From an uncultured Planctomycetia bacterium (GTDB taxonomy: Bacteria; Planctomycetota; Planctomycetia; Pirellulales; Thermoguttaceae), in assembly GCA_963779975.1 (NCBI GenBank), contig CAWAAL010000024.1, forward strand, positions 57,153-121,152: a stretch of 64,000 bases of DNA, in the 5' to 3' direction. Shown piece by piece: positions 3,341 through 48,339 of the stretch. Made by a program: the position numbers and the translations under genes. Numbering within the stretch: the stretch's first letter is position 1; each line of letters begins with the position of its first letter. The notes below the pieces were generated by a model. It saw nothing but the letters and a program-made list of their open reading frames with translations, searched no databases and was not told the DNA's origin.

Positions 3341-3912
3341 ATGCAGATCCTGCGGCTGCTGAAGCAAACGTCGTTGGAGTGGTATCAGTCCAGGGCTTTT
3401 GAGCTCGGCGCCGCCCTGGCCTTTTACGCCATTTTCTCGATCGCGCCGGTGATTGTGCTGGCCTTCACTGCCGCCAGCCTGGTTCTCGGTACAGAGGCGG
3501 CGCAGGGCCGGTTGACCGAGCAGATCGAAAGCACCGTCGGTCACACCGTGGCCGTTGCCATCCAGGCCACCGCGCAATACACGTACCAGAGCGGCTCGAG
3601 CGTCCCGGCGACGGTTCTCAGCATCGTCTTTTTCGGGCTTGGCGCCATCGGGCTTTTCAGCCAACTGCAAATCGCCCTGAACGCGATCTGGGAGGTCGAG
3701 CCCAAATCGGGGCGGGGACTGCGAGGAAACCTGCACGATCGGTTGGGATCATTCCTGGCCGTCCTGGGAATCAGCGCGCTCTTGCTGGCCGACCTGCTAG
3801 TCACGGCACTCCTCTCCGCGCTCGGCCGGGTGGTGCCCTCCTCGCCCGCGCCCCAAGGCTTCCCGTTCTGGTGGGCCGTCATGTTCACCGTCTCCTGGGC
3901 ATTCCTCACGCT
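3341..3912 (+). pseudogene. YihY/BrkB family membrane protein, 3'-truncated
   Basis: ATG 3341 (MQILRLLKQTSLEWYQSRAFELGAALAFYAIFSIAPV...). Family-like sequence stops near 3912, where a CCCCTA-tatat-TAGGGG hairpin and lower-GC unrelated sequence begin. The ORF runs on to 4093 without similarity. Confidence 0.5.
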
Positions 3913-4113
3913 GGATCACCACCCCTATATATTAGGGGGCGGAACCGGTAAACTTACAGTCGGACGATGTATTTCAGACTGTATGCTGCGCGTCCTACCG
4001 ATCGCCAGATCGCCCTTGGGCGATTGCCGGCGAACACGTCAAGTCGCGCCTTGCCCGAGTTGTCTACAAAGGCAATCTGGCCATAAGCGATAAGGCGGGG
4101 CCGCGTAGGAACG

Positions 4114-7100
4114 ATGCTTGCGAGCGCTGATTTGTCGCGCAGGAGGAGCAAGGTGTCGAATAGAAAGGTGAAAACCACCGTCAAGCGAGCGCCCACATCG
4201 CTAGAAAACGTAGAACCGGACATGCCAGCCGTCCCCCCGGTGGAGGAGAGGCCGGCTGTAGAGGCAGATTTGGGCGTGCATCCGAAGGCGGGCTTTCCCA
4301 TCGTCGGCATCGGTGCGTCGGCCGGCGGTTTGGCGGCGTTTGAGGCTTTCTTTTCCGGGATGCCTGCCGAGACCGATCCGGGCATGGCCTTTGTCCTGGT
4401 GCAGCATCTGGCCCCGGACCATAAAAGCATCCTCTCCGACCTGGTCAAACGATATACGCGCATGCAGGTCTTCGAGGTCGAGGACGGAATGCCGGTCAGG
4501 CCCAACTGTGCCTACATTATTCCACCCAATCGGGACATGGCCTTTCTGGACGGTACGCTCCAGTTGCTGGAGCCGGCTCGCGCCGCGCGGCCATCGCCTG
4601 CCGATTGACTTCTTCTTCCGCTCTCTGGCCCAGGACCAACACGAGCGGGCGATCTGCATCGTGCTCTCGGGCACCGGTAGCGATGGTACGCAGGGAGTGC
4701 GGGCGGTCAAGGGCGAGGGCGGCATGGTGATGGTACAGAACCCCGAATCCACCGAGTACGACGGTATGCCGCGCAGCGCCATCGCCACTGGACTGGTGGA
4801 CTACGTGCTGCCGCCCGCCGAGATGCCGCCCCAGATCATCGCCTACGTCGCCCATGCATTCGGCAAAAAACCCCGGCCGGTCTCTCCCCCGGCTCCCAAG
4901 GCCGGAGACGCGATGAAGAAGGTCTTTATCCTGTTGCGAGTCCAGACCGGCCACGATTTTTCGCAGTACAAACAAACCACGATCAACCGCCGCGTCGAGC
5001 GGCGCATGGCCGTCCACCAGATCGAACGGTTGAATGAGTACGTTCGTCACTTGCAGCAGACCCCGGCCGAAGTGGAGGCCCTCTTTCGCGATCTCTTGAT
5101 CGGCGTCACCAATTTCTTTCGCGACCCGGAGGCGTTCGCGGCGCTGAAAGGAACAGGTCATCCCGCGACTTTGTGCCGACAAGGACGCGGGGGCAGCGAT
5201 CCGCGTCTGGGTGCCTGGTTGCTCCACCGGCGAGGAAGCATTTTCCATCGCCATCCTGATCCAGGAGCAGATGGAACTGCTGAAGCAGAGTTGCAAAGTG
5301 CAGGTGTTCGCCACGGATATTGATCGCCAGGCCATCGAACAGGCCCGCACCGGTATCTATCCCGTCAGCATTGCCGCCGACATTTCACCGGAACGACTAT
5401 CGCGGTTTTTCGCCCAGGAGCCGGACGGCACGGCCTATCGCGTCAACAAAAGCCTCCGCGACCTATTGGTCTTTTCCGAGCAGGACGTGATCAAAGACCC
5501 GCCGTTTTCCAAACTGGACATGATCAGTTGCCGCAACCTGTTGATCTATATGGGCGGGGATCTCCAGAAGAAGCTCATGCCCCTGTTCCATTACGCACTA
5601 AAGCCGGGCGGCACGCTCTTCCTGGGAACCTCCGAGACCGTGGGCGAGTTCGCGGACCTGTTTTCCACGCTGGACCGCAAGTCGAAGCTGTATCAACGCA
5701 AAGAGAACGGTTCTGGCGCACAACGCCCGGCCATGGGAAAGTATCTTCCGCCCCTGACGGAAGGTGAAACCGCTTTACGGCCCTCCGCGAAGGCTCCCGG
5801 CGAAAGCACGTTCCGACTGCGCGAGTTGACCGAACGGGCGTTGCTGCAACAGTACGCCCCGGTCGCTGCGCTGATCAACCAACGCGGCGACATCCTGTAC
5901 CTCCACGGCCGTACCGGCTTGTACCTGGAACCAGCCCCAGGCGAACCCGGCATGAATATCCTGAAGATGGCCCGCGAAGGGTTGCGGCAAGAACTGACGA
6001 CTGCCTTGCACAAGGCTGTGGCCAGCAGAGATTTGGTGCGGCATCCGGGACTGCGGGTCAAAACCAACGGCGACTTCACCTTGGTCGATCTAACGATCCG
6101 GCCGGTAGCGGCAGGCCCCAGACGCCGCCACTGATTCGGCCCTGTTTCTGGTCATCTTTGAGGAATCGCCGCCGACAGTCCAGCAGCGGCCGGAAAAGGC
6201 CATAGCCGTGGATTCGGTGCAAGGCTCGGACTCCGGCGCCATGGATGTCGATGCGCGGATCGCGGCGCTCAAGCAGGAACTGCGGGCCAAGGAAGAATAC
6301 CTCCAGACCACGAACGAGGAATTGGAGACATCCAACGAAGAACTGAAATCCTCCAACGAGGAGATGCAGTCGGTCAACGAAGAGTTGCAATCCACGAACG
6401 AGGAACTGGAAACCTCCAAGGAGGAACTGCAATCGGTCAACGAGGAACTGGCCACGGTCAACGCCGAGTTGCAACAGAAGGTGCTCGATCTCTCGCGGGC
6501 CAACAACGACATGAACAATCTGCTGGCTGGTTCGGGCATTGGTACAATTTTCGTGGACTATCAACTGCACATCCAGCGATTTACTCCCGCTGTCACCCAG
6601 GTCATCAACCTGATCCTGACCGACGTGGGGCGGCCCGTGGGGCACATCGTATCCAACTTGGCTGGTTATGACCGCCTGGTGGAGGACGTGAAGGCCGTCC
6701 TGGACACCCTGGTTCCCAAGGAGGTTGAAGTGCAAACCAAGGCGGGTGCGTGGTATTTGCTGCGAATCCGGCCCTATCGTACCCTGGAGAACGTGATCGA
6801 AGGCGCGGTGATTACCTTCACGGAGATTACCGAAATGAGAAATGCCCAGGCAGCCCTGCGGGAATCCGAGGCCCTGCGCCGCCTGGCCGTCGTGGTGCGC
6901 GATGCGCAAGATGCCATCCTGATGCAAGACTTGGAGGGACGCATCCTGGCATGGAACCCGAGTGCGGAGGCAATGTACGGCTGGAGCGAAGCCGAGGCGC
7001 TGACGATGAATATCCGCGACCTGATCCCGGAAGGGCAGCGGGAGGGCACGTCCGCCATGGTGAAACAGATTGCTCGTGGTGGGATCTTGGAGCCCTATCA

Positions 7101-7272
7101 CACGCAACGGATCGCCAAGGACGGCCGGATCGTGGAGGTGCGGCTGTCTGCCACTGCCTTGATGAACGAAATCGGAAAAGTGTATGCCATCGCGACCACG
7201 GAGCGGGAGATACGCGGGCAAGATGAGGATAGGGCCTCTATGGTCACGAGAAGGAAGCCTGGCCATGACTAA
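4114..7272 (+). CDS. CheB methylesterase - CheR methyltransferase - coiled coil - PAS sensory protein, 3 frameshifts in this sequence
   Basis: Track ORFs 4114..4608, 4313..5323, 5211..6134 and 6208..7272 read as one protein. Motifs: GIGASAGGLAAFEAFF, LPIDFFFRSLA, VWVPGCSTGEEAFSIAILI, NEEL-repeat coiled coil, two PAS. Frame changes lie near 4575-4590, 5149-5152 and 6116-6121. Confidence 0.8.
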
Positions 7273-8995
7273 GAAACGACCTCGTGCAGACGATTTCGCC
7301 GATCTGCGTCGGCGGGCGGAGGAAAAGGCTCACGCCGACGAGGCCCAGGTTCAGAAACCGCTATCGCCCAAGGAATCCGGACGGCTGCTCCACGAGTTGC
7401 AAGTGCATCAGATCGAGCTGGAGATGCAGAACGAGGAACTGCGCCGGGCACAGGGCGAACTCGAAGCCGCGCGGGCGCGGTATTTCGACCTCTTCGACCT
7501 GGCGCCGGTGGGCTATTTCACCCTCAGCGAACAGGGGCTGATCCTGGAAGCAAACCTCACGGCGGCCAGTTTACTGGGCGTGGAGAGACGCGACTTGGTC
7601 AAGAAGCCGTTGACGCGCTTCATCCTTCCGGAGGACCAGGATATCTACTACCGGCATCGCAAGCAACTCTTTGAAACGGGCACGCCGCAGGTGTACGATC
7701 TGCGAGTGCTGCGTGCAGACACCGACCCCTTCTGGGCGCGTTGGGAGACGACCGAGGCGCAGGATGCTGACGGTGCGCCCGTGTGCCGGGCCGTGATGAG
7801 CGACATTACCGCGCGGAAGCAGGCAGAGGAGAAGTTGGCCGAACTGGACCGCCGCAAAGATCAATTTCTGGCGATGCTCAGCCATGAACTTCGCAACCCT
7901 CTTGCCCCCATCCTCAACTCCGTGCAACTGCTTCAACTCCAGAAAAGCCAGAACTCCGTTCAACAAAAGGCCCTGGCCATCATCGAGCGACAGGTGGGGC
8001 AACTGACGCACTTGGTTGGCGACCTGTTGGAAGTCTCCCGCGCGATCACCGGCAGGATTCAGCTTTGCCAAGAGCAAGTCGCCGTGAACAGCATCGTGGA
8101 ACGTGCCCTGGAGACGGCTCGTCCGCTGATCGACCAGCGCAAACATGAACTCACGGTGTCGCTGCCGCAAGACCCGATTTGGCTGTACGCCGACGCCTCC
8201 CGGCTGGAGCAAGTCGTGACGAACCTCCTCACCAACGCCGCCAAGTACACCAAGGAAGGCGGTCACATCTGGCTCTCCGCCGAGCAGGAGGGCGACAAAG
8301 CGGTGTTGCGCGTGCGGGATACGGGCCTCGGCATTGCTCCCGCGTTCCTGCCTCACGTCTTCGAATTGTTCACGCAAGCCGAGCGGTCATCCGACCGTTC
8401 GCAGGGCGGGTTAGGCATTGGATTGACCCTGGCGAAGCGGCTGGTCGAAATGCACGGAGGAACCATAGGGGTCTCCAGCACTTTGGGGCAAGGTAGCGAG
8501 TTCGTCGTGAGCCTTGTCGTCTGTCCGCCAGGAACGATCTCGGGCCGGGCCGGGTACCAGCGCAGCGGGTGGGCTTGCGGGTGGCAGCCGCCTGCAACGG
8601 AAATAGCCAGGCCGACCGAGTCAGTCTTGCGGGTCCTGGTGGTGGACGATAACCTGGATGCGGCGAATGCCTTGAAAATGCTGGTGGAGGAAGCGGGGCA
8701 TTTGGTGCGGATGGCTTACACCGGCCCGACGGCATTGGCAGCGGCCCTCGATTATCGGCCCGACGTGATGCTGCTGGACATCGGCCTGCCGGAGTTGGAT
8801 GGCCTTGAAGTGGCAAAGCGGATACGTCAGGAGCCCCTACTCCGCGACATCGTGCTAGTAGCCGTGACGGGGTATCGACAGGCGGCAGACCGGCAACGTG
8901 TGCTGGAAGCGGGGTTCGATCACTATTTGGTCAAGCCCGCCGACTTCGAGAAGGTGCGACAAATCTTGGCGGAGGTCGCGGAGAAGGCGACCTGA
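7265..8995 (+). CDS. hybrid sensor histidine kinase (PAS-HisKA-HATPase_c-REC)
   Basis: ATG 7265 overlaps the end of the upstream gene. LAMLSHELRNPLAPI (H-box), GLGIGLTLAKRLVEMHGG, and a C-terminal receiver (VLVVDDN...MLLDIGLPELDG). Confidence 0.85.
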   Translation: MTKKRPRADDFADLRRRAEEKAHADEAQVQKPLSPKESGRLLHELQVHQIELEMQNEELRRAQGELEAARARYFDLFDLAPVGYFTLSEQGLILEANLTAASLLGVERRDLVKKPLTRFILPEDQDIYYRHRKQLFETGTPQVYDLRVLRADTDPFWARWETTEAQDADGAPVCRAVMSDITARKQAEEKLAELDRRKDQFLAMLSHELRNPLAPILNSVQLLQLQKSQNSVQQKALAIIERQVGQLTHLVGDLLEVSRAITGRIQLCQEQVAVNSIVERALETARPLIDQRKHELTVSLPQDPIWLYADASRLEQVVTNLLTNAAKYTKEGGHIWLSAEQEGDKAVLRVRDTGLGIAPAFLPHVFELFTQAERSSDRSQGGLGIGLTLAKRLVEMHGGTIGVSSTLGQGSEFVVSLVVCPPGTISGRAGYQRSGWACGWQPPATEIARPTESVLRVLVVDDNLDAANALKMLVEEAGHLVRMAYTGPTALAAALDYRPDVMLLDIGLPELDGLEVAKRIRQEPLLRDIVLVAVTGYRQAADRQRVLEAGFDHYLVKPADFEKVRQILAEVAEKAT

Positions 8996-9046
8996 CGCCC
9001 ACGAATCGGGTAGAATGGCCTGCGATTCACAACAGGGTTCAAACCG

Positions 9047-9088
9047 TCCGACGTGGCCGAAGGCCTTGGAGTGTTCCGTCACGTCGGC
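9047..9088 (+). repeat. terminator-arm-only copy of the repeated module hairpin, no U-tract
   Basis: CCGACGTGGCCGAAGGCCTTGGAGTGTTCCGTCACGTCGG is ~85% identical to the module terminator hairpin but is followed by CGGGATT. It ends 26 nt before the REC-DUF2294 start codon. Confidence 0.55.
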
Positions 9089-9113
9089 GGGATTGGCGAA
9101 AGAGAGAAAACTT

Positions 9114-9974
9114 ATGCCAGGGACAGGGAAAGTTCTTCGGGTTCTCGTGGTCGATGACGACCGAGACGGTGCGGACACGCTTGGCCTGCTCGTTGAAGAA
9201 CTCGGCAACCAGGTACATGTGACCTATGGCGGGACGTCGGCACTCGACGTTGCGACCGTATTTCGGCCCGACCTGATGTTGATCGACCTGGCAATGCCTG
9301 ACATGGATGGATGTCATCTCGTTGGGCAATTTCGCCAGATTCCGGCCTTCGCGAAGACGCGAATCGTGGCGGTCACCGGCCATGCCAACGAGGGACATAG
9401 AACCTTGGCCATGAAGGCCGGGTTCGATAAGGTCCTCTTCAAGCCTGTTGCTCTGAAAGAAATCAAAGCGGTCTTAGCCAGTGTCGTTCAGGGGGGCGCA
9501 CTTGCGGGCCCATCGCCGCAACCGGCCAAGAAGCATGCGAGTTCCCAAGCAGAACGACGTTTGCCGATTAACGAAGCGCGTAGAATCAGGAAGGATCGCA
9601 AATCAGGAATCCTCACTCAAGCAGAAAGCGAAGCAGCCGTCTGCGAGGGGATCATTCGCTTTCAAGAGGACTATTTGGGAGGGGGGGCGGAGCAGATCCG
9701 CGTACACTTCATCAAAGACCTCCTCGTGATCCGCATTCTGGGTGCTTTGACGGTGGCCGAGCGGCAACTGGTCAAGTCCTTTTCGCCGGAGAAAGGGAGG
9801 GATCTCATCAAGCAGACACGGGAACAACTGCTGGAGTTGGCACGCCCGATGTTGGAATCGATGGTCCATGAGGTCGTGGGCGTGAAGGTGTTGAGCATGC
9901 ACCACGACATCAGTACTGTGACCGGGGAAGAAGTGGTCCTCTTCAGCTTGACCGAGGCACCTCGCTTTTCCTAA
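9114..9974 (+). CDS. response regulator: receiver domain fused to DUF2294 (MpsC-like) domain
   Basis: ATG 9114. REC (LVVDDDRDGADTL...MLIDLAMPDMDG...FKP), a linker, then a full DUF2294 pattern (ESEAAVCEGIIRFQEDYLGGG...LSMHHDISTVTGEEVVLFSL). Confidence 0.8.
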   Translation: MPGTGKVLRVLVVDDDRDGADTLGLLVEELGNQVHVTYGGTSALDVATVFRPDLMLIDLAMPDMDGCHLVGQFRQIPAFAKTRIVAVTGHANEGHRTLAMKAGFDKVLFKPVALKEIKAVLASVVQGGALAGPSPQPAKKHASSQAERRLPINEARRIRKDRKSGILTQAESEAAVCEGIIRFQEDYLGGGAEQIRVHFIKDLLVIRILGALTVAERQLVKSFSPEKGRDLIKQTREQLLELARPMLESMVHEVVGVKVLSMHHDISTVTGEEVVLFSLTEAPRFS

Positions 9975-10248
9975 GGTCGGCAAGCCGCCAGGGCAAAAGC
10001 CGCCAGGGCAAAAGTCGCCACAGACGCCGATCCCCGACACTTGGGAACTACTGTAGAGACCAAGGAGATTCCTCGTGGTCGGGGCAAATTGCATGCAGGA
10101 CATCCTGTTCCACCGCATCGTGACCATTAGGGCGTTTGGGTGGCGAGTCCTCTCTTGGGCTGTTTTCGAGAGCCAGGGCGACACATTCCTCTCCTTGGCT
10201 CCAAGGAGACGCGTTCTTTGAAGCGACGACTTCGCGAGAATAACTCTC

Positions 10249-10396
10249 TTGCCTTTGCCTCATAGCGGCATACAATGATGGCAGAGTCGCGATACACTCG
10301 ATCGCGACTCTGCAACAAGAATGTCGGATGACTAGATAGAGAGCAACCCGGCCGTACGGGGAGGCTCGTTAGTGAGTAAGCCGACGTGGTCGAATA
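10249..10396 (+). ncRNA. GTCGGATGACTAG-box RNA module, copy 1 (3'-truncated)
   Basis: -35 TTGCCT 10249-10254, 16 nt, -10 TACAAT 10271-10276. 13-bp P1 hairpin 10281-10313; box 10323-10335. The terminator 5' arm breaks at 10396 into an antisense gene relic. Confidence 0.7.
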
Positions 10397-10819
10397 GTCG
10401 TACAGCTCGCGCAGTTGCGTTTCCGGCAGTTCGACGGGCGCCAAATACGGGAAGAGCATCATGTGCTCCCAAGGCATCCAGACCAGTGGAAACGACGGAC
10501 GGATTGGCGCACGAGTGAAGGCGAACGGGTTGACGCCGGACAAGGCAATCGTGGACTCGGCCGTGAGTATGAGTTCCGTGTAGGGTTGGCTGATCTCGAA
10601 TCGACTGGCCGAATTGCCAAAGACATCTTCGAATTCCATGATCGGGACGGCGGGAACAATCTGCAAGCGATAGTTCAAGACGCTCTGATGGACGTCATTG
10701 ATCGGCCGCAGGTGGACGCAATGCTTGCTGTGCTGAACGGGCTGATTGTAACCAAACCGGGTCGTGTGCTTGACAGTCAAGCGACGGCTGCCAATCGTGG
10801 ACGGGACGGGCATGGTCAT
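10397..10819 (-). pseudogene. transglutaminase N-terminal-domain (Bact_transglu_N-like) protein, 3'-truncated by module copy 1
   Basis: RLTVKHTTRFGYNQPVQHSKHCVHLRPIND...FEDVFGNSASRFEI fits the family. Similarity ends at ...LRELYDY, after which the ORF translates the module antisense. Confidence 0.6.
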
Positions 10820-10836: not shown

Positions 10837-11241
10837 CTACTTCTTCTTAACGTCGCGGAGCATCGGCGACTCGGCCAGGGTGAAGAGAACGACCTCCTCG
10901 CCGGTGACGGTGCTAATGTCGTGGTGCATGCTCCGCACCTTGATGCCGGTGATCTCCTGGACCAGCGTTTCCAAGATCGGACGGGCCGTTTCGATCAGAT
11001 GCGTCCGCACTTGCTTGAGCAGGTCGCGCCCCTTCTCGGCAGAGAGCGACTTGACGAGTTGCTGCTCGGCGGCGGTCAAAACGCCTTGCAGGCGGACCAC
11101 GAGCAGATCGCCGAGCAGGTGCGCGTGAATATCCTTGGGTCCCCGGCCCATATAGTCCTGCTCGAAGCGTGTCACTGCTTCGCAGACGGCGGATTCGATC
11201 TCTCCGTGGGTTCTCATGGCAATTTCTCGCTGGGTTCTCAA
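10837..11241 (-). CDS. DUF2294 (MpsC-like) family protein, stand-alone
   Basis: IESAVCEAVTRFEQDYMGRGPKDIHAHLLGDLLVVRLQGVLTAAEQQLVKS...MHHDISTVTGEEVVLFTLAESPMLRDVKKK. Divergent from module copy 2. Confidence 0.8.
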   Translation of the reverse strand: MRTQREIAMRTHGEIESAVCEAVTRFEQDYMGRGPKDIHAHLLGDLLVVRLQGVLTAAEQQLVKSLSAEKGRDLLKQVRTHLIETARPILETLVQEITGIKVRSMHHDISTVTGEEVVLFTLAESPMLRDVKKK

Positions 11242-11344: not shown

Positions 11345-11530
11345 TAGCCAGTCGGCAAGGGATCGCTAAAATATAGATGTAACCGCTCCAAAGAGCTTGA
11401 ATGCTCGGATTACGATGAATGTTTGTCGGATGACTAGATGAAATACAACCCGGCCTTGCCGGGGGGTTCGTTGAAGAGTAAGCCGACGTGGCCGAATACC
11501 TGCGGGTGTTCCGCCACGTCGGCTTTTTTG
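11345..11530 (+). ncRNA. GTCGGATGACTAG-box RNA module, copy 2
   Basis: Divergent promoter region (TAGCCA, 16 nt, TAAAAT 11367-11372). Box 11425-11437; full terminator; T6 11524-11529. 75 nt to ATG 11605. Confidence 0.7.
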
Positions 11531-11604
11531 TTTCCGTGGTGCAAGACGGTCGGAATCCATTCACGGAAGGCTACTTCTCGGCCCAAGCATTGGAGGATAG
11601 GATC

Positions 11605-11883
11605 ATGTTGTTCTTGGCGCAATCACTACTCACGATGGCGGGCTTTGAGTACGACGAAATCGACGAAACCTGGGTAGCGCGAATGCCGTTGCGTCCTCTT
11701 GTGGCGGTCGAATGCGACGAGGATCGAGCTTACGTCCGGGAGGCGCTGAGGGAGGTCCAAGCGAGTCTTGACGCTATCGGCTGCGCCTACGACAACTACT
11801 TCGTGGTCAACGGCCGCTTCGTCTCCGTCCCAGGGCCTAGCGCCCGTGCGGCTACGGGTCTGGACGAACAGGATGACGGTTAA
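11605..11883 (+). CDS. hypothetical protein
   Basis: ATG 11605 follows RBS GGAGGA (MLFLAQSLLTMAGFEYDEIDETWVARMPL...). No family recognised. Confidence 0.4.
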   Translation: MLFLAQSLLTMAGFEYDEIDETWVARMPLRPLVAVECDEDRAYVREALREVQASLDAIGCAYDNYFVVNGRFVSVPGPSARAATGLDEQDDG

Positions 11884-12585: not shown

Positions 12586-12672
12586 CTACTTCTTCTTTAC
12601 GTCGCGGAGAATGAGCGACTCGGCGCGGGTGAAGAGAACGACCTCCTCGCCGGTGACGGTGCTGATGTCGTT
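12586..12672 (-). pseudogene. DUF2294 gene relic (last 28 codons + stop)
   Basis: The reverse strand reads NDISTVTGEEVVLFTRAESLILRDVKKK-stop. It lies 22 nt left of the copy 3 promoter. Confidence 0.7.
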
Positions 12673-12694
12673 TGAAAGAAAGCCAAAAGCTCTA

Positions 12695-13075: not shown

Positions 13076-14764
13076 ATGACCGTACGTCACATTTGCCCAT
13101 GGTGCAGAGTCGCCGCACTGGCAACCCTGGGCGCAATAGTTGGCTTGCACAAGGCTACCGCCGTACCGCCGGGCCCGACGGATGCCGCGGATGGGATACA
13201 AGTGCTCACGCGCGGGCCGGTGCATGAGGCCTTCGCGGAAACGGTGACCTTCGATCCGCAACCGGGCATCGTGGCGCCGAAAGCGCCGCCGGCCGCCATC
13301 GAAGAACTTCCGCCGGACCAGAAACCGGAGGGGGCCAACATCGCCTGGATCCCCGGCTACTGGGCCTGGGACGACGAACGAAGCGACTTCCTTTGGGTCA
13401 GCGGCATCTGGCGCGACCTTCCGCCGAGCCGCCAATGGGTGCCCGGTTATTGGGACCAGTCCGGGCAAGGCTACCAATGGACTTCCGGGTACTGGGCGGA
13501 TGCCCAGGCGAGTAACGTGCAATATTTGCCCGAACCGCCTGTGACCGCCGAAGCCGGTCCCAACATTCCGTCGCCTTCGCCGGACGACACTTGGCTGCCG
13601 GGAAGTTGGCTGTGGCAGCAAAACCGCTATGCTTGGCGTCCCGGTCTCTGGGCCACCGCACATCCGGATTGGGAGTGGGTTCCCGCCCATTACCTATGGG
13701 CTCATCGCGGCTATGTTTTTGTCGACGGCTACTGGGATTACTCCATCGGCCGCCGCGGCGTACTGTTTGCGCCAGTGTATTTCAGTGCGGGCATGTATAC
13801 GCAGCCCCGTTTCTCCTATTCGCCCGCGACGGTGATCGATCTGGATGTTTTCACCAACTGTCTGTTCTTGAGGCCGCAATATCAACACTACTATTTCGGC
13901 GACTACTACGCCGACAATTATCAAGCAGCGGGGTTCTACCCGTCGTATTCGTACAACTCCGGCCGCCATGGCTACGATCCGATTTTCACCCACGAGCGCT
14001 GGCAGCATCGCCAGGACGGACAGTGGGAGCGTCGCATTGCGGCCGACTTCCAGAACCGCCGCGATCACGCGGATGCCCGACCGCCGCGGACGTTGGCGGC
14101 GCAAACAGCATTCAGGGCCGGCGAGGCGACGTCCGGAAAGAGGAGTCCCGTGCTGGCCGTGCCGTTCTCCCAATTCACGAAGAGTCAGAATAGTCCGCTG
14201 CGATTCCAGCCGGTCGATTCGTTGGAGCGACAAAAGCTGGTTCAGCACGTGCAAGCGGTGCAACGATTCCGCGAGCAGCGGCAGAAACTGGAGAACCAAG
14301 CAGCGGCGCCCTCAGCCGCCTCAGCGGCGAGACAATTCGCGCCGGCCAACGGGAGACTTCCCACCTCTCCGATCGCGACGAGGTCAAACACGGAACTCGG
14401 CAAGGATCACGTTCCACCCCAGATGCATGTAGCTCCCAAGCCGGATCTCACGGTCGAGGCCAAGCCGAGAGCGACTCCATCGCTGGAGAAACCGCAGCAA
14501 CGCACCGTGAACCGGCTGCCGCTCGATACGCCGAAACCTGAACCCCGGGCCGAACGGCCGGCACCGAAAGCGGAACCCCGGGTCGAACGGCCGGCACCGA
14601 AAGCGGAACCCCCGGTCGAACGGCCGGCACCGAAACCTGAACCCCAGGTCGAACGCCCAGCGCCGAAACCTGAACCCCAGGTCGAACGCCCAGCGCCGAA
14701 ACCGCCGGCAGAGCGACCGGCAGCGGGACCGAACCGAAATGGACAAAAGGAAAAGGGTAAATAG
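13076..14764 (+). CDS. secreted YXWGXW-repeat protein with Pro/Lys/Glu-rich repeat tail
   Basis: ATG 13076 with a signal-like N-terminus. Repeated GYWxW/WxPGxW aromatics (WIPGYWAWDD, WVPGYWDQSG, WTSGYWAD, WLPGSWLWQ). The tail is (PKxEPxVERPA)n. Confidence 0.6.
   Translation: MTVRHICPWCRVAALATLGAIVGLHKATAVPPGPTDAADGIQVLTRGPVHEAFAETVTFDPQPGIVAPKAPPAAIEELPPDQKPEGANIAWIPGYWAWDDERSDFLWVSGIWRDLPPSRQWVPGYWDQSGQGYQWTSGYWADAQASNVQYLPEPPVTAEAGPNIPSPSPDDTWLPGSWLWQQNRYAWRPGLWATAHPDWEWVPAHYLWAHRGYVFVDGYWDYSIGRRGVLFAPVYFSAGMYTQPRFSYSPATVIDLDVFTNCLFLRPQYQHYYFGDYYADNYQAAGFYPSYSYNSGRHGYDPIFTHERWQHRQDGQWERRIAADFQNRRDHADARPPRTLAAQTAFRAGEATSGKRSPVLAVPFSQFTKSQNSPLRFQPVDSLERQKLVQHVQAVQRFREQRQKLENQAAAPSAASAARQFAPANGRLPTSPIATRSNTELGKDHVPPQMHVAPKPDLTVEAKPRATPSLEKPQQRTVNRLPLDTPKPEPRAERPAPKAEPRVERPAPKAEPPVERPAPKPEPQVERPAPKPEPQVERPAPKPPAERPAAGPNRNGQKEKGK
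14531..14722 (+). repeat. 33-bp tandem repeat x ~5.8 (codes PKAEPRVERPA units)
   Basis: Units at 14531, 14564, 14597, 14630 and 14663, plus a partial unit at 14696, read directly from the sequence. Confidence 0.85.
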
Positions 14765-15094: not shown

Positions 15095-16311
15095 TCCTTG
15101 CTTCGCCCGAAGAAATACGAGCTGGAGATTCACGGCGCGAAGGTGAAACCAGGCTTCGAGGTCGATCCCGATGTCCCGGCCTGTCATTCGGAGGTGCGGG
15201 AACGTGTCCATAGGGTCCGGTCAGATCGCCTGTCGCCTTGCGGTTTGAGTCCTTATGACACGCCTTGGCGGCGGAACGACACCGGCCTTGCTGTGCCCAG
15301 TCCCACCGGGCAACCGTCGCTGAACGCCGCACTTTCGCCTCAATCTTCAGCGCCGGAGTCCAATTTTCCCGAACTACAGGCCATTCCCGATCTCGGCCCC
15401 CCGTCGTTCCCCGAAACGAATGGGCGGGAAGGCACGAGCCCGGCCGAGCCAGCCCTTGACCTGACTCGCAGCGTCGGACGGCCGGTCGCGCTTCCGCAGC
15501 AAACGTACACCCGCTCGTCGGAGTTATCCGACCGCTTGACGCAGATCGCACGCGGCAAGGGCATGCTCCCCGGTCAGGGCATCAACGTCTGCTCATAAGC
15601 AACGGCATCGCCCTCATGCACGGCACCGTCCGCACGCCCGGCGACTGCGTCCTGCTGGCGAACGTCCTGGCTCTCGAACCGGAGGTGCGGCAGATTGACA
15701 ACCGCTTGGTCGCCTTCGGTCCTCGGTAGGCTTTTTGGGCGATCGCCGGTGGCCGTTCGGGGTTCCGTGGCATTGACGCTTTGCGGGCGCTATCGTCGCT
15801 TGTACGCACTCCAGGGGGTAACTGGACGGGATTTCGCTGGTGTCGGCCGGCAAGGCCGGGTTCAGGCGATTACCGGGTCGATCGAGATTGTTGGCTGCGG
15901 CACGAATTGACCCGCCGACCTGAAACAGGGCGCGTAGCGTCGGTCCTGCACCACGGCATCCGGTCGAACCACCACCAGACGGCGCCCATGGCCACGAATT
16001 TGGCGGACCACGAGCACGGATTCCGCATTAAGAAGTGGACACCGAATGAGAGTGATGCCCAGAGTGCTGGGCCGGATCAGAAGGACAATGGGCCATGGCA
16101 GAAAGTGAAACCTTCCGGGCGCTGCACGACAACAGTACGACACCAAAGACAAACAGTGCGGCGCTCGGAGGTTCCTCCCGCGCCGGAAAAGCCGAGCCGA
16201 CACCTGTGCCAATGGCGCCGCACGCATGCGCGCTACAGTACCTCATTTCCATCATCAAGAACTCGCAACGCAGGAGCCCGTCACAATAGAACGACTGAAG
16301 GATGGTGCCTC

Positions 16312-17763
16312 ATGGTAACAATGGACAAGTCCGAACCGGGGTCGATTCGCACCTATCTGATGCAAATGGGCGACATCCCTCTGCTCAGCCGGAGCGAGGA
16401 GTTGGCGACAGCTCGTCAAATCGACAAGACTCGCGGTCGGCTGCGGCGTGGCATGTTGTCCGCCCACTTTATCCTTCACGCGGCGATCGCCGCGGCGGAA
16501 GAAGTCCTGAGCGGCAAGCTGCGGTGGGACCAGGTGATCGAGTTATCGAACGATGATCCCAGGAAGGGGCAGATAACTCAGCTCTTGGAGACGAATTGCC
16601 GGACGCTCGGTCAGCTCCTGCGCTTGAACCGGAATGATTTCCGCATCGCCGTCGGTCATCGGAAGCATTCGCCGGACGATCGTCGGGCCGCACGGCGGCG
16701 GCTAGTCCATCGCCGTCGAAGGGCGGCGTCGTTGATCGAGGAAGTCGCGGTGCGAATGCCCTGCATGCAGTCGGCGCTGACCACGCTCAGGCAGATGTCC
16801 GAACGGATGACCGCCGTCGCCGTAGCGCGGGCGAAAGTGCAATCGGTTGCTGGCGAAGAACACCAACTTGAAGAGCTGCGCAAGGAAATGCGCTGCCTGA
16901 TGCGGGTCACGCAGGAAACCCCAGCCACGTTGCGCCGACACTTGACGCGGATCGCGGCGATGAGCAAAGAGCATGCAGCGGCCCGCCGCGACCTGGCGGC
17001 GGGCAACCTCCGTCTGGTCGTCTCGATCGCCAAGCGATACCGCAATCGCGGGCTGAGCTTGTTGGACCTGATCCAGGAAGGTAATACCGGCCTGATGCGG
17101 GCCGTCGATAAGTTCGAGTCCGCCCGCGGCTTCCGCTTCTCGACCTACGCTACCTGGTGGATCCGCCAGGCCATGAGCCGGGCGATCGCCGACCAGAGCC
17201 GGACCATCCGCGTGCCGGTCCACATGATCGAAAAGATGGGCAAGGTCCGCGACATCAATCGCGATCTGGTTCACAACGAGGGCCGCGAACCGACCCTGGA
17301 GGAAGTGGCCCAACTCAGCGGGCTGTCGATCGCCGACACGCAGCGGGCCTTGAAGATGAGCCGGCAACCGCTTTCCTTGGACCAACCCGTGGGCCATCAG
17401 GAAGAGAACTTCCTTGGCGACCTGCTCTTCGATCATCGCGAAGAAGATCCGCTGGCCGGCATGAACCAGGCCATGCTTCGTTCGAGCATCACCGACGTTT
17501 TGCAGACGCTCGACTATCGCGAGCGGGAGATCCTGCGGCTGCGCTACGGGCTGGCCGACGGCTACACCTCGACACTGCAGGAGATCGGCCGGATCTTCTC
17601 CGTCACCCGGGAGCGGGTCCGCCAGATCGAGTCCGAGGCGATCCGCAAGCTCCAGCGTCCGGCTCTGTCTCGCAAACTCGCAGGCTTTCTGGATGAGCAG
17701 ATCCCGCTGCTGAGCAACATCAACTTCGGTCTCAGCGGGATCGCCATGGCCGGGAATTTGTGA
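16312..17763 (+). CDS. RpoD-family sigma-70 factor (regions 1.2, 2, 3, 4)
   Basis: ATG 16312. [85 protein letters not shown]...[20 protein letters not shown]. Confidence 0.85.
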
Positions 17764-22455: not shown

Positions 22456-22543
22456 CTACTACTTCTTTACGTCGCGGAGAATGGGCGACTCGGCGCGGGT
22501 GAAGAAGAACGACCTCCTCGCCGGTGACGGTGCTGATGTCATT
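22456..22543 (-). pseudogene. DUF2294 gene relic (frameshifted 3' end)
   Basis: The reverse strand reads NDISTVTGEEVVL, then is out of frame through one extra T relative to relic 12586-12672. It lies 22 nt left of the copy 5 promoter. Confidence 0.65.
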
Positions 22544-22565
22544 TGAAAGAAGGCCAATAGCCCTA

Positions 22566-22748
22566 TTGCCTTTACCCTTTGGCGGCGTACAATGTGACTG
22601 TTGGAAGAGTCGCATCGCAGATCGTGCTGCTCCAACGAAGTTGTCGGATGACTAGAAAGAGGGCAACCCGGCCCTGCCGGGGGGCTCGTTGACGAGTAAG
22701 CCGACGTGGTCGAATACCTCCGGGTGTTCCGCCACGTCGGCTTTTTTC
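22566..22748 (+). ncRNA. GTCGGATGACTAG-box RNA module, copy 5
   Basis: TTGCCT 22566-22571, 16 nt, TACAAT 22588-22593. Box 22643-22655; T6 22742-22747. 30 nt to ATG 22778. Confidence 0.75.
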
Positions 22749-22777
22749 ATTTTCTGCCAGGTTCGGAGTACCCTCCC

Positions 22778-23791
22778 ATGTCGATCTTACCACACTTTCA
22801 CCAACCCCTGCAGACCGCGACAAAACAGCAGATTTTCCAGCAACATCGCCATGGCGACTCGGCGGAGTCGCTGGCCCGGCGTTTTTGTCGGTCCTGCACC
22901 CGCATTTACGGCATCATCAAGGAGATCCGGGCCGCACGGATCATGGAACTGCCGCTGGACTCCATGGGCAACGAGCAGTTTGCCCGCCTGTGCTCGGAGA
23001 AGAAGGAACGCGAGATATTACAGCCACCGCCGGAAGGCGATCTGGCGGCGAAGAAGTCGCGCGTGCCCGCCGGCATGCCCGCGTATCTGGCCAACCTGTA
23101 CGACGTGCCCCTGCTGACGCACGAGGAGGAGGTCCATCTCTTTCGGAAGATGAACTATCTCAAGTTCAAGGCGAGCGGGCTCCGCGACGCCCTCGACGTG
23201 AACCGGCCCAAGAGTTGCCTGATGGACCAGATCGAGGATCTGTACGACGAATCGGTCGCAGTCCAGAATCAGATCATCCGCGCCAACCTGAGGTTGGTGG
23301 TCGGGATTGCCAAGCGGTACGTCGGTCCGGCGGAAGACTTCTTCGAACTGGTCAGCGACGGGAACATGTCGTTGATCCGCGCCGTGCAGAAGTTCGATGT
23401 TTCGCGGGGCAACAGGTTCAGTACGTACGCAACTTGGGCGATCATGAAGAATTTCGCCCGCACGATCTCCGACGTGCTCCGTCAGCGGGGCCGTTTTTGC
23501 ACGAACCACGCGGAAACGTTCGGCGGCGCCGAGGATGACCGCACGGACCAGTACGAGCAGGCGTCGGCCCAAATCCAGCGGGAATCGCAAGTCGAGGGGA
23601 TCCTCGAGCGACTCGACGAGCGGGAGCGGCAGATTGTCACGAGCCGTTTCGGCCTGGCGCGCGGCCAGGAACCGCTGACCTTGAAGCAGGTCGGGGCTGC
23701 GATCGGCGTAACCAAAGAGCGGGTCCGTCAGATCCAGTGCCGGGCGATGAGCAAATTGAGAACGGCTGCCGAGGAGGACGGAATCGAGTGA
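22778..23791 (+). CDS. alternative sigma-70 family factor (regions 2-4, long N-terminal extension)
   Basis: ATG 22778. [72 protein letters not shown]...TLKQVGAAIGVTKERVRQIQ. Confidence 0.8.
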   Translation: MSILPHFHQPLQTATKQQIFQQHRHGDSAESLARRFCRSCTRIYGIIKEIRAARIMELPLDSMGNEQFARLCSEKKEREILQPPPEGDLAAKKSRVPAGMPAYLANLYDVPLLTHEEEVHLFRKMNYLKFKASGLRDALDVNRPKSCLMDQIEDLYDESVAVQNQIIRANLRLVVGIAKRYVGPAEDFFELVSDGNMSLIRAVQKFDVSRGNRFSTYATWAIMKNFARTISDVLRQRGRFCTNHAETFGGAEDDRTDQYEQASAQIQRESQVEGILERLDERERQIVTSRFGLARGQEPLTLKQVGAAIGVTKERVRQIQCRAMSKLRTAAEEDGIE

Positions 23792-26743: not shown

Positions 26744-29150
26744 ATGACGACAAAAGCCCTTTCCCCCGAACTGCTCCAGAAGATGGACGCTTATTGGCGC
26801 GCCGCGAACTATCTCTCGGTCGGCCAGATTTACCTTTATGACAATCCCCTCCTGAAGCGGCCGCTTGCGCTTGCCGACGTGAAGCACATGCTGCTGGGAC
26901 ACTGGGGCACGACCCCCGGACAGAACTTCATCTACGCACACCTGAACCGGGTCATCAAGAAATACGACCTCGACATGATTTATGTCTCCGGTCCGGGGCA
27001 CGGCGGCCCGGCCGTCGTGGCCAACACGTACCTCGAAGGCACGTACAGCGAGGTCTATCCCGACATCAGCCAGGACGAGGCCGGGCTGCGGAAGCTCTTT
27101 CTGCAGTTCTCGTTTCCCGGAGGAATTCCCAGCCACGCATCGCCCGAGTGCCCGGGCTCGATCCACGAGGGCGGCGAGTTGGGCTATTCGCTCAGCCATT
27201 CGTTCGGAGCGGTGTTCGACAATCCCGGTCTCATCGTCGCCTGCGTCGTCGGCGACGGCGAGGCGGAGACGGGACCGCTGGCCACGGCGTGGCATTCGAA
27301 CAAGTTCCTCGATCCGGCCACCGATGGCGCGGTGCTGCCGATCTTGCATCTCAACGGCTACAAGATTTCCAACCCGACCATCCTGGCCCGCATCGAGCAC
27401 GAGGAATTGGAGCAGTTGCTCCGCGGCTACGGGTGGACGCCCTACTTCGTCGAGGGGCACGAGCCCGAACTGATGCACGAGGCGATGGCCGCGACGCTCG
27501 ACGCGGCGGTGGAGCAGATCCGACAAGTCCAGGACAACGCCCGCCGACCATCGGTAGATGGCGCCCCCTACAGCCTGACGCGTCCGCGCTGGCCGATGAT
27601 CGTGCTGAACTCGCCCAAGGGCTGGACGGGGCCGAAGATGATCGATGGATTGCAAGTGGAAGGCACCTTCCGGGCGCACCAGGTGCCGCTCTCCGATCCG
27701 GCGACGCATCCGGAACACCTCAAGCTGCTGGAAGACTGGCTGAGGAGCTACCGGCCGGAGGAACTCTTCGACGATTCAGGCCGCCTGAAAGCGGAGTTGG
27801 CCGAACTGGCGCCCCAAGGCCAGCGGCGCATGGGCGCCAATCCCCACGCCAACGGCGGCCTGCTGCTCCGCGACCTGCGGATGCCGGACTTCCGCGACTA
27901 CGCGGAAGCCGTACCCTCGCCGGGCGCGCGCGGCATCGGCGAACGTCCACGTGCTCGGGCCTTTCCTCCGCGACGTGGCGAAGCTCAACGCCGAGCCGAC
28001 CATGGGTACACGGTGCCCGAACTTTCGCGTCTTCGGCCCTGACGAGACGCTCTCCAACGGCCTGGAGGCCCTTTTCGAAGTGACGCAGCGCCAATGGGAC
28101 GCCGCAACCGTGCCCAACGACGAATTCCTCGCGCCCGCGGGGCGGGTGATGGAAATGCTCAGCGAACATCAATGCGAGGGCTGGCTCGAAGGCTACCTGC
28201 TCACCGGGCGGCATGGACTCTTCAACTGCTACGAGGCCTTCATCCACATCGTCGATTCGATGTTCAACCAGCACGCCAAGTGGCTGAAGGTCACGTCGCG
28301 CTTGCCGTGGCGGCGGAAGATCGCCTCGCTGAACTACCTGCTGGCCTCGCACGTCTGGCGCCAGGACCACAACGGTTTCACGCACCAGGACCCCGGTTTC
28401 ATCGATCACGTCCTGAACAAGAAGGCCGAAATCGTCCGCGTTTACCTCCCCCCGGACGCCAACTGCCTGCTCTCCGTGATCGACCACTGCCTCCGCAGCC
28501 GGCATTACGTGAACGTCGTGGTCGCGGGCAAACACCCCGCGCCGCAGTGGCTGACGATGGACGCCGCCGTCAAGCACTGCACCGAGGGCATCGGCATCTG
28601 GCCGTGGGCGAGCAACGACCAGGGCGTCGCCCCCGACGTGGTCATGGCCTGCTGCGGCGACGTGCCCACGCTGGAGACGCTCGCCGCCGTCTCGATCCTC
28701 CGCGAGCATCTGCCGGAGTTGAAGATCCGGGTGCTCAACGTCGTCGACCTCATGCGGCTGCAACCGCAAAGCGAACACCCGCACGGGCTGAGCGACATGG
28801 ATTTCGACGAGCTTTTCACCAAGGACAAGCCGGTCATCTTCGCGTTCCATGCCTACCCATGGCTGGTCCACCGGCTGACCTACCGCCGCACCAACCACCG
28901 CAACATCCACGTCCGCGGCTACAAGGAAGAGGGCACCATCACCACGCCCTTCGACATGACGGTGCTGAACGATCTGGACCGCTTCCATCTTGTGATGGAC
29001 GTCATCGACCGCCTGCCGCAGACCGGCGACAAGGGCATCTATCTCAAGCAGCAACTCAAGGACAAGCTCATCGAGCACAAGCAATACATCGAGAAGTACG
29101 GCCAGGACCTGCCGGAAATCCGCAACTGGAAGTGGGACAACCTCAAATGA
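26744..29150 (+). CDS. xfp: phosphoketolase (xylulose-5-P/fructose-6-P), 1 frameshift in this sequence
   Basis: Track ORFs 26744..28042 and 27951..29150 together cover a full ~800-aa Xfp ([62 protein letters not shown]). The shift is near 27941-27946. Confidence 0.9.
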
Positions 29151-30247: not shown

Positions 30248-30349
30248 CTATTTCTTCTTCGCGTCGCGGAGCATCGGCGACTCGGCCAGGGTGAAAAGAA
30301 CGACCTCCTCGCCAGTGAGGGTGCTTATGTCATGGCGCATGCTCAACGC
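30248..30349 (-). pseudogene. DUF2294 gene relic (last 33 codons + stop)
   Basis: The reverse strand reads LSMRHDISTLTGEEVVLFTLAESPMLRDAKKK-stop. It lies 47 nt left of the copy 6 promoter. Confidence 0.7.
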
Positions 30350-38522: not shown

Positions 38523-38605
38523 TTTTCTGTGACGCCAAACGGTCGGAATCCAGCACGGAAGACTTCCAGGTTCAAAATCCTGGAGTTGAGCGGAGGTGAC
38601 GAACC

Positions 38606-39052
38606 ATGAGTCGAGATGCAATTGACAGAATGGAAATCCTCATGGTCGAGGATAACTTGCAGAATGCCAACGGCACGATACAGGCCCTCAAATGGGGCAA
38701 CGTGCAATGCCGAGTGAGCCTGGTCTGCGATGACGAGGAAGCGATCCGCTTTCTCTACCGTAAGGGTGAATTCGCCAAGGCGCCGACGCCCAACCTGATC
38801 CTGCTGGACATGCAGTTGCCCAAGGAGGAAGGTCAGCGCTTGCTTGCGGAAATCCGCGCCAACGAAGAACTCAAGGACATTCCCGTTGTGGTCCTCACCG
38901 GTTCACTGGATCACCGAGCGGGTCTTCACGTCCAAGAGATTCAGGTGGACGGCTTGATCACGCACCCCGTGGAGTTGGACAAGTTCATCGGTGTGGTCAA
39001 GTCGCGTCGCCGGTCTTGGTTGACCGACCTTGCGCTGTCCTCCATTGCCTGA
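38606..39052 (+). CDS. single-domain response regulator (receiver only)
   Basis: ILMVEDNLQNA, LILLDMQLPKEEG, PVVVLTGS, and K in DGLITHPVELDKF. Confidence 0.8.
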   Translation: MSRDAIDRMEILMVEDNLQNANGTIQALKWGNVQCRVSLVCDDEEAIRFLYRKGEFAKAPTPNLILLDMQLPKEEGQRLLAEIRANEELKDIPVVVLTGSLDHRAGLHVQEIQVDGLITHPVELDKFIGVVKSRRRSWLTDLALSSIA

Positions 39053-39432: not shown

Positions 39433-39441
39433 TCACTAATC

Positions 39442-39717
39442 CGCATCCTGGACGGCGTGGGGGCGGGAGTATTCGGCGTTGTCTCGGTCCTCGTGATCGC
39501 CGACCTCACGCGGGGCTCGGGCCGCTTTAATCTCACGCTCGGGGCCATCAGCACGGCGGTCGGCATTGGTGCTTCGCTCAGCCAGGTCATTGCCGGCTCC
39601 ATCGTGCATCACTTTGGCTCCAACGTCGGCTTTCTCTTCCTTGCCGCGGTCGCGTCGGCCGCATTGGGCATCCTTTACTTCTTCATGCCGGAGACACACA
39701 ATAAAGGGTTTGCCTGA
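39442..39717 (+). pseudogene. relic of an MFS transporter C-terminus
   Basis: ILDGVGAGVFGVVSVLVIADLTRGSGRFNLTLGAISTAVGIGASLSQVIAGSIVHHFG...LGILYFFMPET. Only the last ~3 TM helices are present. Confidence 0.5.
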
Positions 39718-40134: not shown

Positions 40135-40200
40135 ATTTTCTCTTTACGTCGCGGAGAATTGGCGACTCGACCGGGAGACCTCCTCGCGGCTGACGGCGCC
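40135..40200 (-). pseudogene. strongly decayed DUF2294 3' relic
   Basis: TTCTCTTTACGTCGCGGAGAATTGGCGACTCGACC...CCTCCTCGC aligns with the other relics (CTTCTTTACGTCGCGGAGAATGAGCGACTCGGC...CCTCCTCGCC). Confidence 0.4.
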
Positions 40201-40257: not shown

Positions 40258-40444
40258 TTGCCTTTGTACCCTCATGACGTACAATGATGGTGTTGGAAGA
40301 GTCGTGGCGCGATTGATCTCGACTCTCCAGCGAACGTGTCGGATGACTAGATGAAGAGCAGCCCGGCTGTGCCGCGGGGGCTCGTTAGTGAGTAAGCCGA
40401 CGTGGTCGAATACCTTGGGGCATTCCGCCACGTCGGCTTTTTTC
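40258..40444 (+). ncRNA. GTCGGATGACTAG-box RNA module, copy 8
   Basis: TTGCCT 40258-40263, 16 nt, TACAAT 40280-40285. Box 40338-40350; T6 40438-40443. 101 nt to ATG 40545. Confidence 0.75.
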
Positions 40445-40453
40445 GTTTTCCTA

Positions 40454-40525
40454 AGAACGTTCGGAAGAAATTGGTGCCAGTCACACGTTTGTCCCGGGCT
40501 TCCGCTCATTTCTTCCGAACGTTCT
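40454..40525 (+). repeat. second hairpin element (IR2), copy A
   Basis: AGAACGTTCGGAAGAAAT ... ATTTCTTCCGAACGTTCT (18-bp arms, 36-nt interior), immediately after the copy 8 U-tract. Confidence 0.75.
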
Positions 40526-48138: not shown

Positions 48139-48339
48139 TTGTGCTTCTCTTTCCGTACGGTATAATTGGAGTGTGCTGCGAGGCGGCGGAGAGCTCCGCG
48201 CGACTTGCTGACGCAGTGGATTTGAATTCGTCGGATGACTAGATAAAGAGCAACTCGGCCGGAATGGCCGGGGGGCGCGTTGAAGAGTAAGCCGACGTGG
48301 GCGAATGCCTTTGGGTGTTCGGCTACGTCGGTTTTTTTG
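48139..48339 (+). ncRNA. GTCGGATGACTAG-box RNA module, copy 11 (most divergent)
   Basis: TTGTGC 48139-48144, 16 nt, TATAAT 48161-48166. Box 48230-48242; P2 variant CGGCC-ggaat-GGCCG; T7 48332-48338. 109 nt to ATG 48448. Confidence 0.7.

Follow-up and report, generated by a model that had tools for sequence, protein, structure and literature searches.

A conserved kinase operon of Planctomycetota with an MpsC-domain response regulator, beside an array of structured leader RNAs

Introduction

In Bacillus cereus, the CheR-type enzyme RsbM methylates the hybrid kinase RsbK, blocking transfer to RsbY (PMC9912610). We describe here a gene block of comparable content, a CheB/CheR-PAS gene, a hybrid histidine kinase gene and the gene of a response regulator, REC-MpsC, in a 64,000-nucleotide stretch of a contig from an uncultured Planctomycetia bacterium (CAWAAL010000024.1, positions 57,153 to 121,152; hereafter the window), where it occupies positions 4114-9974 and stands directly upstream of an array of copies of a leader RNA, here called the module. 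The original prediction, made from the letters of the window, proposed that the block could be one signalling unit and a candidate input pathway of the genes behind the modules.

The output domain of the regulator belongs to PF10057, now MpsC and formerly DUF2294, whose namesake we take to be the MpsC of the Staphylococcus MpsABC system. Literature on DUF2294/MpsC is essentially absent, a full-text search returning one unrelated paper and the term "MpsC" unrelated abbreviations; nothing was found in the literature on the combination of CheB, CheR and PAS_10, nor, in a limited search, on the organisation of the general stress response in Planctomycetes. ANTAR-type antiterminator regulators, among them AmiR, NasR and EutV, provide a further point of comparison.

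The reading that we favour, to which we give a rough probability of 0.5, is that of an intact kinase/regulator operon in which the phosphorylated MpsC domain feeds an MpsC/CsrA control of read-through at the modules, with feedback on the operon itself.

Results

Pfam agrees with the domains proposed for the three co-directional genes on the + strand, and the junctions between them are as had been described. The kinase start codon, an ATG at 7265, overlaps the stop codon of the CheB/CheR-PAS gene (TAA, 7270-7272) within the string ATGACTAA, the two reading frames sharing 8 nucleotides (nt); REC-MpsC begins at 9114, 119 nt past the kinase coordinate 8995, and a gap of 275 nt lies between its end at 9974 and the -35 hexamer of the first module at 10249. 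Homology at the DNA level to five relatives spans exactly ~3914/4126 to 9975 and ends sharply on both sides, and the block is more than a chance grouping.

The comparison covered 83 loci around REC-MpsC homologues, drawn from species-representative genomes and two contigs of one metagenome. Of the 63 loci with at least 2 kb of upstream sequence, 55 have a same-strand kinase gene immediately before REC-MpsC, and 54 of these kinases are hybrid; a CheB/CheR gene precedes the kinase in 15 of the 47 loci with at least 5.5 kb upstream. Directly 5' of REC-MpsC, six loci (L024, L038, L055, L056, L073 and L080) carry a single open reading frame (ORF) of 1587-1715 amino acids (aa) with the order CheB-CheR_N-CheR-PAS_10-PAS-PAS-HisKA-HATPase-REC, and two more (L010 and L027) have the same appearance, with assembly frame breaks. 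In L001, L003, L005 and L074 the ends of the tblastn alignments imply that the CheB/CheR-PAS and kinase genes overlap by 4-8 nt. Because the two proteins form one polypeptide at the same locus elsewhere, the window clade is best read as the product of a fission between the two PAS domains that kept the 4-8 nt overlap, and the two genes are predicted to be translationally coupled in the window.

The proposal that the block is one signalling unit is therefore backed by the 55/63 pairing, the fusions, the gene overlap and a DNA colinearity limited to the block. As judged from gene order and conservation, it is well supported that the block represents a conserved phosphorelay operon of Planctomycetota; the kinase/REC-MpsC pair would be its core and CheB/CheR an accessory, ancestrally fused part. 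REC-MpsC has 1848 homologues, with 304 relatives in species-representative genomes, and the related loci all come from metagenome-assembled genomes (MAGs) of Planctomycetota; the window itself encodes the PF07638 ECF sigma and BBP7 families, which mark the organism as a planctomycete. For a 100% identical protein (P0001), the genomic context is not on record.

REC-MpsC has the features of a functional receiver, with an acidic pocket, a phospho-accepting aspartate, a threonine and a lysine: across 81 orthologues there is little or no variation at D14/D15, at the phospho-Asp D58 (in the ID pair of LIDLAMP), at T88 or at K110/P111. In the linker that follows, arginines R156, R159 and R162 are invariant and R149 is present in at least 90% of these orthologues; this ladder, which is lacking in MpsC1, a stand-alone MpsC protein described below, would fit a contact with nucleic acid or with the phosphorylated receiver. 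The match of REC-MpsC to PF10057 (97.7 bits) stands far above the cut-off of 23 bits, and its MpsC domain is 59% identical to MpsC1, with which it shares the invariant charged residues HHD (H98, H99, D100), E and R. The HHD motif is missing from a further paralogue, MpsC2. Pfam gives no helix-turn-helix (HTH) in REC-MpsC and no ANTAR domain in any of the block proteins, and in fold comparison the MpsC domain resembles no known enzyme. No curated NCBIfam family reaches its cut-off for a block protein, the BarA, UvrY and FixJ models staying far under theirs and covering the receiver only, and a sequence search of the PDB matched receiver domains alone.

The kinase has the composition of the hybrid HisKA class, with the HisKA histidine, a HATPase_c domain and a fused receiver with its aspartate pocket (PF00512 61.3 bits, PF02518 99.3 bits and PF00072 78.4 bits, all above cut-off); the SHELRNPL H-box, the DD pair, LLDIGLP, VTGY and VKP are visible in its translation. 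PAS_10 as a sensor common to CheB/CheR and to longer kinases elsewhere was dropped on account of weak Pfam support, the direct fusions being the better evidence.

The CheB/CheR-PAS gene had been described as one gene, and here the original account holds for coordinates and domains but not for a single open frame: 4114-7272 reads in frames 1, 2, 0 and 1. The breaks are single extra bases (C at 4579, G at 5146 and G at 6121), absent from L001, L004 and L005. An intact 1038-aa orthologue from L001 aligns collinearly by tblastn as four pieces, 85-98% identical, that leave out none of its residues, and the pieces are free of stops, deletions and other lesions. In L003, L004, L005 and L007, all long-read MAG contigs, the CheB/CheR-PAS and kinase genes have their breaks at other positions; L001 and L074, the latter a short-read contig, have both genes unbroken. 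A phosphoketolase gene of the window (26744-29150, + strand) is likewise split into two overlapping frames, by a +1 break near 27950-28040. Since the extra bases are absent from relatives, the orthologues are broken elsewhere and the phosphoketolase also shows a +1 break, the three breaks are most probably long-read consensus errors, and the gene is probably intact in the cell. Programmed frameshifting was ruled out, the extra bases being missing from L001, L004 and L005. CheB_methylest, CheR_N and CheR all score above the Pfam cut-off across this thrice-broken frame, as against an intact frame in L001, and the motifs GASAGG, QHLAPDH and GTGSDG of CheB and GCSTGEEAFS of CheR can be read in the translation. 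The coiled coil that follows is a candidate methyl-acceptor segment, and the coiled-coil/PAS_10/PAS tail belongs to a family of 8756 representative clusters at E<=1e-30.

About 55 window ORFs were scanned with Pfam, small ORFs not exhaustively, and the negative results on window genes given below refer to this set. A classical chemotaxis role was rejected, there being no che or MCP (methyl-accepting chemotaxis protein) genes among these ORFs and CheB/CheR being fused to the kinase elsewhere.

We then consider the leader RNA. The module consists of its own sigma-70-type promoter, a variable 5' hairpin, a conserved core of ~110 nt and an intrinsic terminator. The promoter reads TTGnnn-N16-18-TAnnnT in 105 of 136 copies, most commonly TTGC[TCA]T with a 16-nt spacer and TA[CG]AAT. 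A comparison of 129 distinct copies, drawn from many species, shows the core as a long bulged hairpin that has covariation and conserved internal loops. Each module has one invariant and one variable GGA. The invariant one lies in the element U-C-GGA-N-G-A-C, which can form a GGA tetraloop mini-hairpin or, alternatively, pair with GCCG at the base of the terminator, and because it can pair either way the module is predicted to have the layout of a read-through switch. An Rfam search of the whole window, the hairpin at 9048-9088 included, gave no hits at the gathering threshold or at a relaxed E-value; the best sub-threshold match of the module is CsrC (17.5 bits against a threshold of 61). Identity with the Rhodopirellula-1 motif (PMC2864571) was rejected, the consensus being different.

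The genes that modules lead in the window are stress-type: YflT, Band 7, DUF1328 and DUF4440 proteins, an Hsp20-like protein, a single-domain receiver (38600-39052) and an RpoS/RpoD-like sigma factor, behind which come acetate kinase, phosphoketolase and PPK2. The sigma factor (22706-23791, + strand) has a Mor-like N-terminal region, and the same type of sigma factor gene follows an mpsC1-adjacent module in some metagenome loci (L087, L112). As had been counted, eleven module copies are present; a twelfth, partial copy had been overlooked, namely a terminator hairpin in the spacer between kinase and REC-MpsC, which matches module positions 110-150 (nhmmer, E=1.2e-7). A module hairpin before REC-MpsC as a general feature was rejected, since it is confined to the window and its four closest relatives, L001-L004.

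The link between the MpsC domain and the modules comes from the paralogues. In the window, mpsC1 sits between modules 1 and 2 and is divergent from module 2. Among 80 sampled metagenome loci with mpsC1, whose products are 80-91% identical, 57 were assessable for a divergent module, and in 51 of these (89%) an oppositely oriented module lies no more than 700 nt from the start of mpsC1. This module often leads the second paralogue, mpsC2, tens of nucleotides downstream (MpsC2 of L003 matches PF10057 at 88.1 bits), and csrA follows mpsC2 directly, often overlapping it, in 15 of 21 assessable loci. The linkage mpsC1-module-mpsC2-csrA is the strongest new argument tying a regulator with an MpsC output to the modules.

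In the window a csrA remnant (15122-15211, + strand) comprises the C-terminal half, directly past a terminator-like hairpin; at the corresponding place L003 has the order module-mpsC2-csrA (16585-17423). csrA-like genes also stand shortly 3' of same-strand modules in L018 (2825-3467) and L083 (394-846), with no mpsC2 in between. Fragments of ~30 aa from the C-terminus of mpsC1 (12589-12678, 22460-22549, 30251-30343 and 40136-40168, - strand) adjoin the promoters of modules 3, 5, 6 and 8; a cassette made up of truncated mpsC1 and a module seems to have been duplicated, spreading the module copies.

The coordinates of the block and of the features next to it are collected in Table 1. Homology in the leader 5' of the block begins at 3914 against L003 and at 3979 against L001, and a consensus scan of 3914..4113 found no sigma-70-type promoter for the block. 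A promoter of its own for REC-MpsC was rejected after the same type of scan, a conserved TAGAAT at 9011-9016 having no -35 element. Module copy 1 is a truncated relic whose terminator is cut within the left arm, where the sequence enters a transglutaminase-like gene fragment, N-terminal and antisense (10127-10819, - strand); copy 2 leads a 92-aa ORF at 11605-11883.

Further observations concern the rest of the array. An 88-nt element with a long inverted repeat follows the terminators of modules 8 and 11 (40438-40525 and 48334-48421, + strand; 85% identical). A KaiC/RecA-like ATPase is recurrently module-led (5 loci, among them L012 at 5119-7156 and L131), and the L012 gene stands 5' of the kinase/REC-MpsC pair. 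Two tandem repeats are coding: a 33-nt repeat at 14498-14737 encodes a proline-rich repeat in a 652-aa module-led protein, and a 72-nt repeat at 45828-46466 the leucine-rich repeats (LRR) of an LRR-HisKA_3 kinase on the minus strand. Other gene fragments of the window are an MFS piece (39433-39717) and a Ser/Thr kinase piece (44300-44806).

Table 1 Positions of the gene block, its domains and the adjacent features in the window.
Feature	Position	Strand	Basis
Conserved 5' leader of the block, with hairpin CCCCTATATATTAGGGG	3914..4113	+	DNA alignment with relatives
CheB/CheR-PAS gene, ~1040 aa once repaired	4114..7272	+	Pfam, tblastn against L001 orthologue
CheB methylesterase domain, cut by first frame break	4303..4837	+	PF01339, two pieces, 82.7 and 105.2 bits
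CheR_N and CheR S-adenosylmethionine-binding methyltransferase domain, cut by second frame break	4913..5678	+	PF03705 55 bits, PF01739 140 bits
Coiled coil, heptads x-N-E-E-L-x-[ST]	6247..6528	+	Translation; coiled-coil Pfam noise hits
PAS_10, then PAS domain	6511..7212	+	PF13596 105 bits; PF13426/PF00989
Hybrid histidine kinase	7265..8995	+	Pfam; start fixed by L001 orthologue
Kinase PAS domain	7475..7819	+	Pfam
Kinase HisKA domain	7856..8044	+	Pfam
Kinase HATPase_c domain	8192..8515	+	Pfam
Kinase REC domain	8633..8968	+	Pfam
Module terminator hairpin copy, 41 nt, without T-run, kinase/REC-MpsC spacer	9048..9088	+	Repeat family D5
Response regulator REC-MpsC, 286 aa	9114..9974	+	PF00072 77.2 bits, PF10057 97.7 bits
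REC-MpsC REC domain	9141..9476	+	Pfam, conservation
REC-MpsC arginine-ladder linker	9558..9599	+	Pfam, conservation
REC-MpsC MpsC domain	9618..9953	+	Pfam, conservation
FHA-domain gene, 3' fragment, 19 aa, right-hand scar	9997..10070	+	tblastn/blastn to L001 16709-16782
Module copy 1, promoter and 5' part only	10249..10396	+	Repeat analysis, promoter scan
Stand-alone MpsC paralogue mpsC1	10837..11241	-	PF10057 122.7 bits; tblastn
Module copy 2, TAGCCA-16-TAAAAT promoter-like, conserved core, terminator	11345..11545	+	Repeat analysis, promoter scan

Discussion

Gene content, conservation, the fusions and the linkage of MpsC, module and csrA can be read directly from the loci compared; the methylation, the phosphotransfer and any action on the modules we infer. 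In the circuit that we propose, the PAS domains would sense a signal, and the methyltransferase and methylesterase domains would tune the gain of the kinase by reversible glutamate methylation of the coiled-coil segment. The kinase would phosphorylate REC-MpsC, whose MpsC domain, freed or activated upon phosphorylation, would join a circuit of its paralogues MpsC1 and MpsC2 with CsrA. This MpsC/CsrA circuit would decide whether the module RNA forms its full terminator or is read through into the stress genes. In other species the operon is itself led by a module, which suggests feedback on the operon.

Several observations weigh against this reading. Our Pfam scan found no Hpt domain in the block or in the other window ORFs, and a hybrid kinase normally requires an Hpt step. 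The window has no mpsC2 and retains csrA as a remnant only. In fold comparison the MpsC domain bears a weak resemblance to V4R, Bet3 and H-NOX-type folds, which bind small molecules or proteins, and to nothing informative. The place of the block at the head of the array, which the original prediction had counted in favour of control, is a weak argument: on the left the block abuts a BrkB gene (3341-3913) that is cut off past residue 191 of 294, on the right an FHA fragment, and since the BrkB and FHA genes are neighbours in L001 (16340-17687) both flanks are rearrangement scars. Because these flanks are gene fragments, the position beside the array appears to be recent and lineage-specific, and in L004 and L007, both close relatives, the nearest 10 kb contain no full module. 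Finally, in 20 loci the co-directional kinase string ending in REC-MpsC is preceded by a module on the same strand, which in 11 cases directly abuts the kinase gene; the order in L055, L073 and L080 is module, kinase, CheB/CheR-kinase fusion, REC-MpsC. Because the module precedes its gene string, the operon is a module target in these loci, which fits autoregulation and equally plain membership.

This last point leads to the main alternative, which we hold to be somewhat unlikely: the operon would be one more stress-induced unit of the regulon, MpsC would act elsewhere, for instance at the membrane or in an ion/CO2 system, as its Staphylococcus namesake suggests, and the modules would be gated by another factor, such as a small-molecule ligand or CsrA alone. 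Besides the module-led kinase strings, the position in the window as a rearrangement product and the V4R, Bet3 and H-NOX-type resemblance agree with such a role, as does the riboswitch-like character of the module, in which internal loops are conserved and P1 and the terminator base compete. It would, however, leave unexplained why mpsC1 is paired divergently with a module in 89% of loci and why mpsC2 with csrA is the commonest module-led operon, and no MpsA/MpsB-like genes were found in the window ORFs. Membership is, moreover, compatible with control, regulators of stress regulons being commonly autoregulated members.

A second alternative, that MpsC is an enzyme or a ligand carrier and that phosphorylated REC-MpsC alters a small molecule sensed by the module as a riboswitch, has a parallel in REC-GGDEF regulators and c-di-GMP riboswitches. 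The invariant charged residues that MpsC1 and REC-MpsC have in common, H98, H99 and D100 included, the resemblance of the module to an aptamer with an expression platform and the many module copies per locus before diverse genes all speak for it. We regard it as improbable, given that no known enzyme fold is similar to MpsC, that the domain comprises merely ~110 aa and that the tight coupling of mpsC2 to csrA favours protein-RNA over metabolite control. Very improbable is a decaying locus, with CheB/CheR-PAS a true pseudogene and the block being lost after rearrangement, as three frame breaks within 3.2 kb and the truncated BrkB, FHA fragment, truncated module 1 and csrA remnant close by might suggest: the pieces match the intact orthologue without other lesions, all breaks are +1 insertions as in the phosphoketolase, and the other long-read orthologues are broken at other positions, with L001 and the short-read L074 intact.

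The original interpretation is thus supported in part, for the block as one unit; control of the modules is plausible but unproven. In favour of an input pathway of the module regulon are the MpsC-module linkage and the spacer hairpin, and against it the scars at the flanks and the finding that the operon is also a target. A more specific form of our reading is rather unlikely as a whole: REC-MpsC would be the phosphorylation-switched member of a set MpsC1/MpsC2/REC-MpsC that, together with CsrA, gates a previously undescribed ~110-nt terminator-switch RNA before many stress genes across Planctomycetota. If this were true, it would amount to a general stress response that works by regulated antitermination and not by sigma-factor partner switching, and the CheB/CheR-kinase would be the adaptable sensor of that response. 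The locus ties together a widespread, conserved REC-MpsC family, stand-alone paralogues, csrA and a structured leader RNA without an Rfam entry. Should the link be causal, it would offer a tractable system for asking how the MpsC domain works and how a kinase outside chemotaxis is tuned by reversible methylation; without a causal link the operon still stands as a well-defined and conserved part of the module regulon.

Comparison with known systems

In its working, the block comes nearest to RsbK-RsbM-RsbY, in which a hybrid kinase is co-transcribed with a CheR-type methyltransferase that methylates it and gates phosphotransfer (PMC9912610). In both systems the output of the regulator does not bind DNA, and a general stress regulon is, or here would be, the read-out. 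The block is nevertheless not a member of the RsbK/RsbM/RsbY family: its output is MpsC and not the PP2C of RsbY, a CheB methylesterase is present as well, both enzymes form fusions with PAS domains or with the kinase itself, and the regulon is marked by an RNA leader and not by a sigma-B promoter. An RsbV/RsbW partner switch, PP2C, STAS and anti-sigma kinase had no match in the window ORFs.

A hybrid kinase and a regulator beside multi-copy RNAs, with csrA genetically linked, recall BarA/UvrY (GacS/GacA)-CsrB/Rsm-CsrA, and like the CsrB/Rsm RNAs each module carries a promoter of its own, a GGA hairpin and an intrinsic terminator (PMC4682653). Membership of the BarA-UvrY/Gac-Rsm group fails, in that REC-MpsC has no HTH output of the LuxR/FixJ type as in UvrY, and the module has one invariant GGA, not many, and lies before genes as a leader.

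With CheB/CheR fusion proteins the first protein shares CheB_methylest, CheR_N and CheR with their catalytic motifs. Unlike in a chemotaxis pathway, no CheA, CheW or MCP domain was found in the window ORFs. Because the orthologue is fused to the kinase in other species, the substrate of methylation is probably the kinase or the protein's own coiled coil and not chemoreceptors. In our working idea a phosphorylated receiver controls terminator read-through at many leaders, as with ANTAR regulators; unlike those systems, the block has no ANTAR domain and the module is not the two-hexaloop ANTAR target.

The pair mpsC2-csrA resembles FliW-CsrA and other protein antagonists of CsrA (for example PMC6529632, PMC4894983), in that the gene of a small protein is translationally coupled to csrA; MpsC is unrelated to FliW, and the likeness is one of gene arrangement. 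The Staphylococcus MpsC belongs to the same Pfam family, whereas here MpsA/MpsB partners are missing from the window ORFs scanned and the context is a receiver domain, an RNA leader and csrA. Set against all of these, the locus is a two-component system whose output domain is uncharacterised and which is tied to a leader RNA absent from Rfam.

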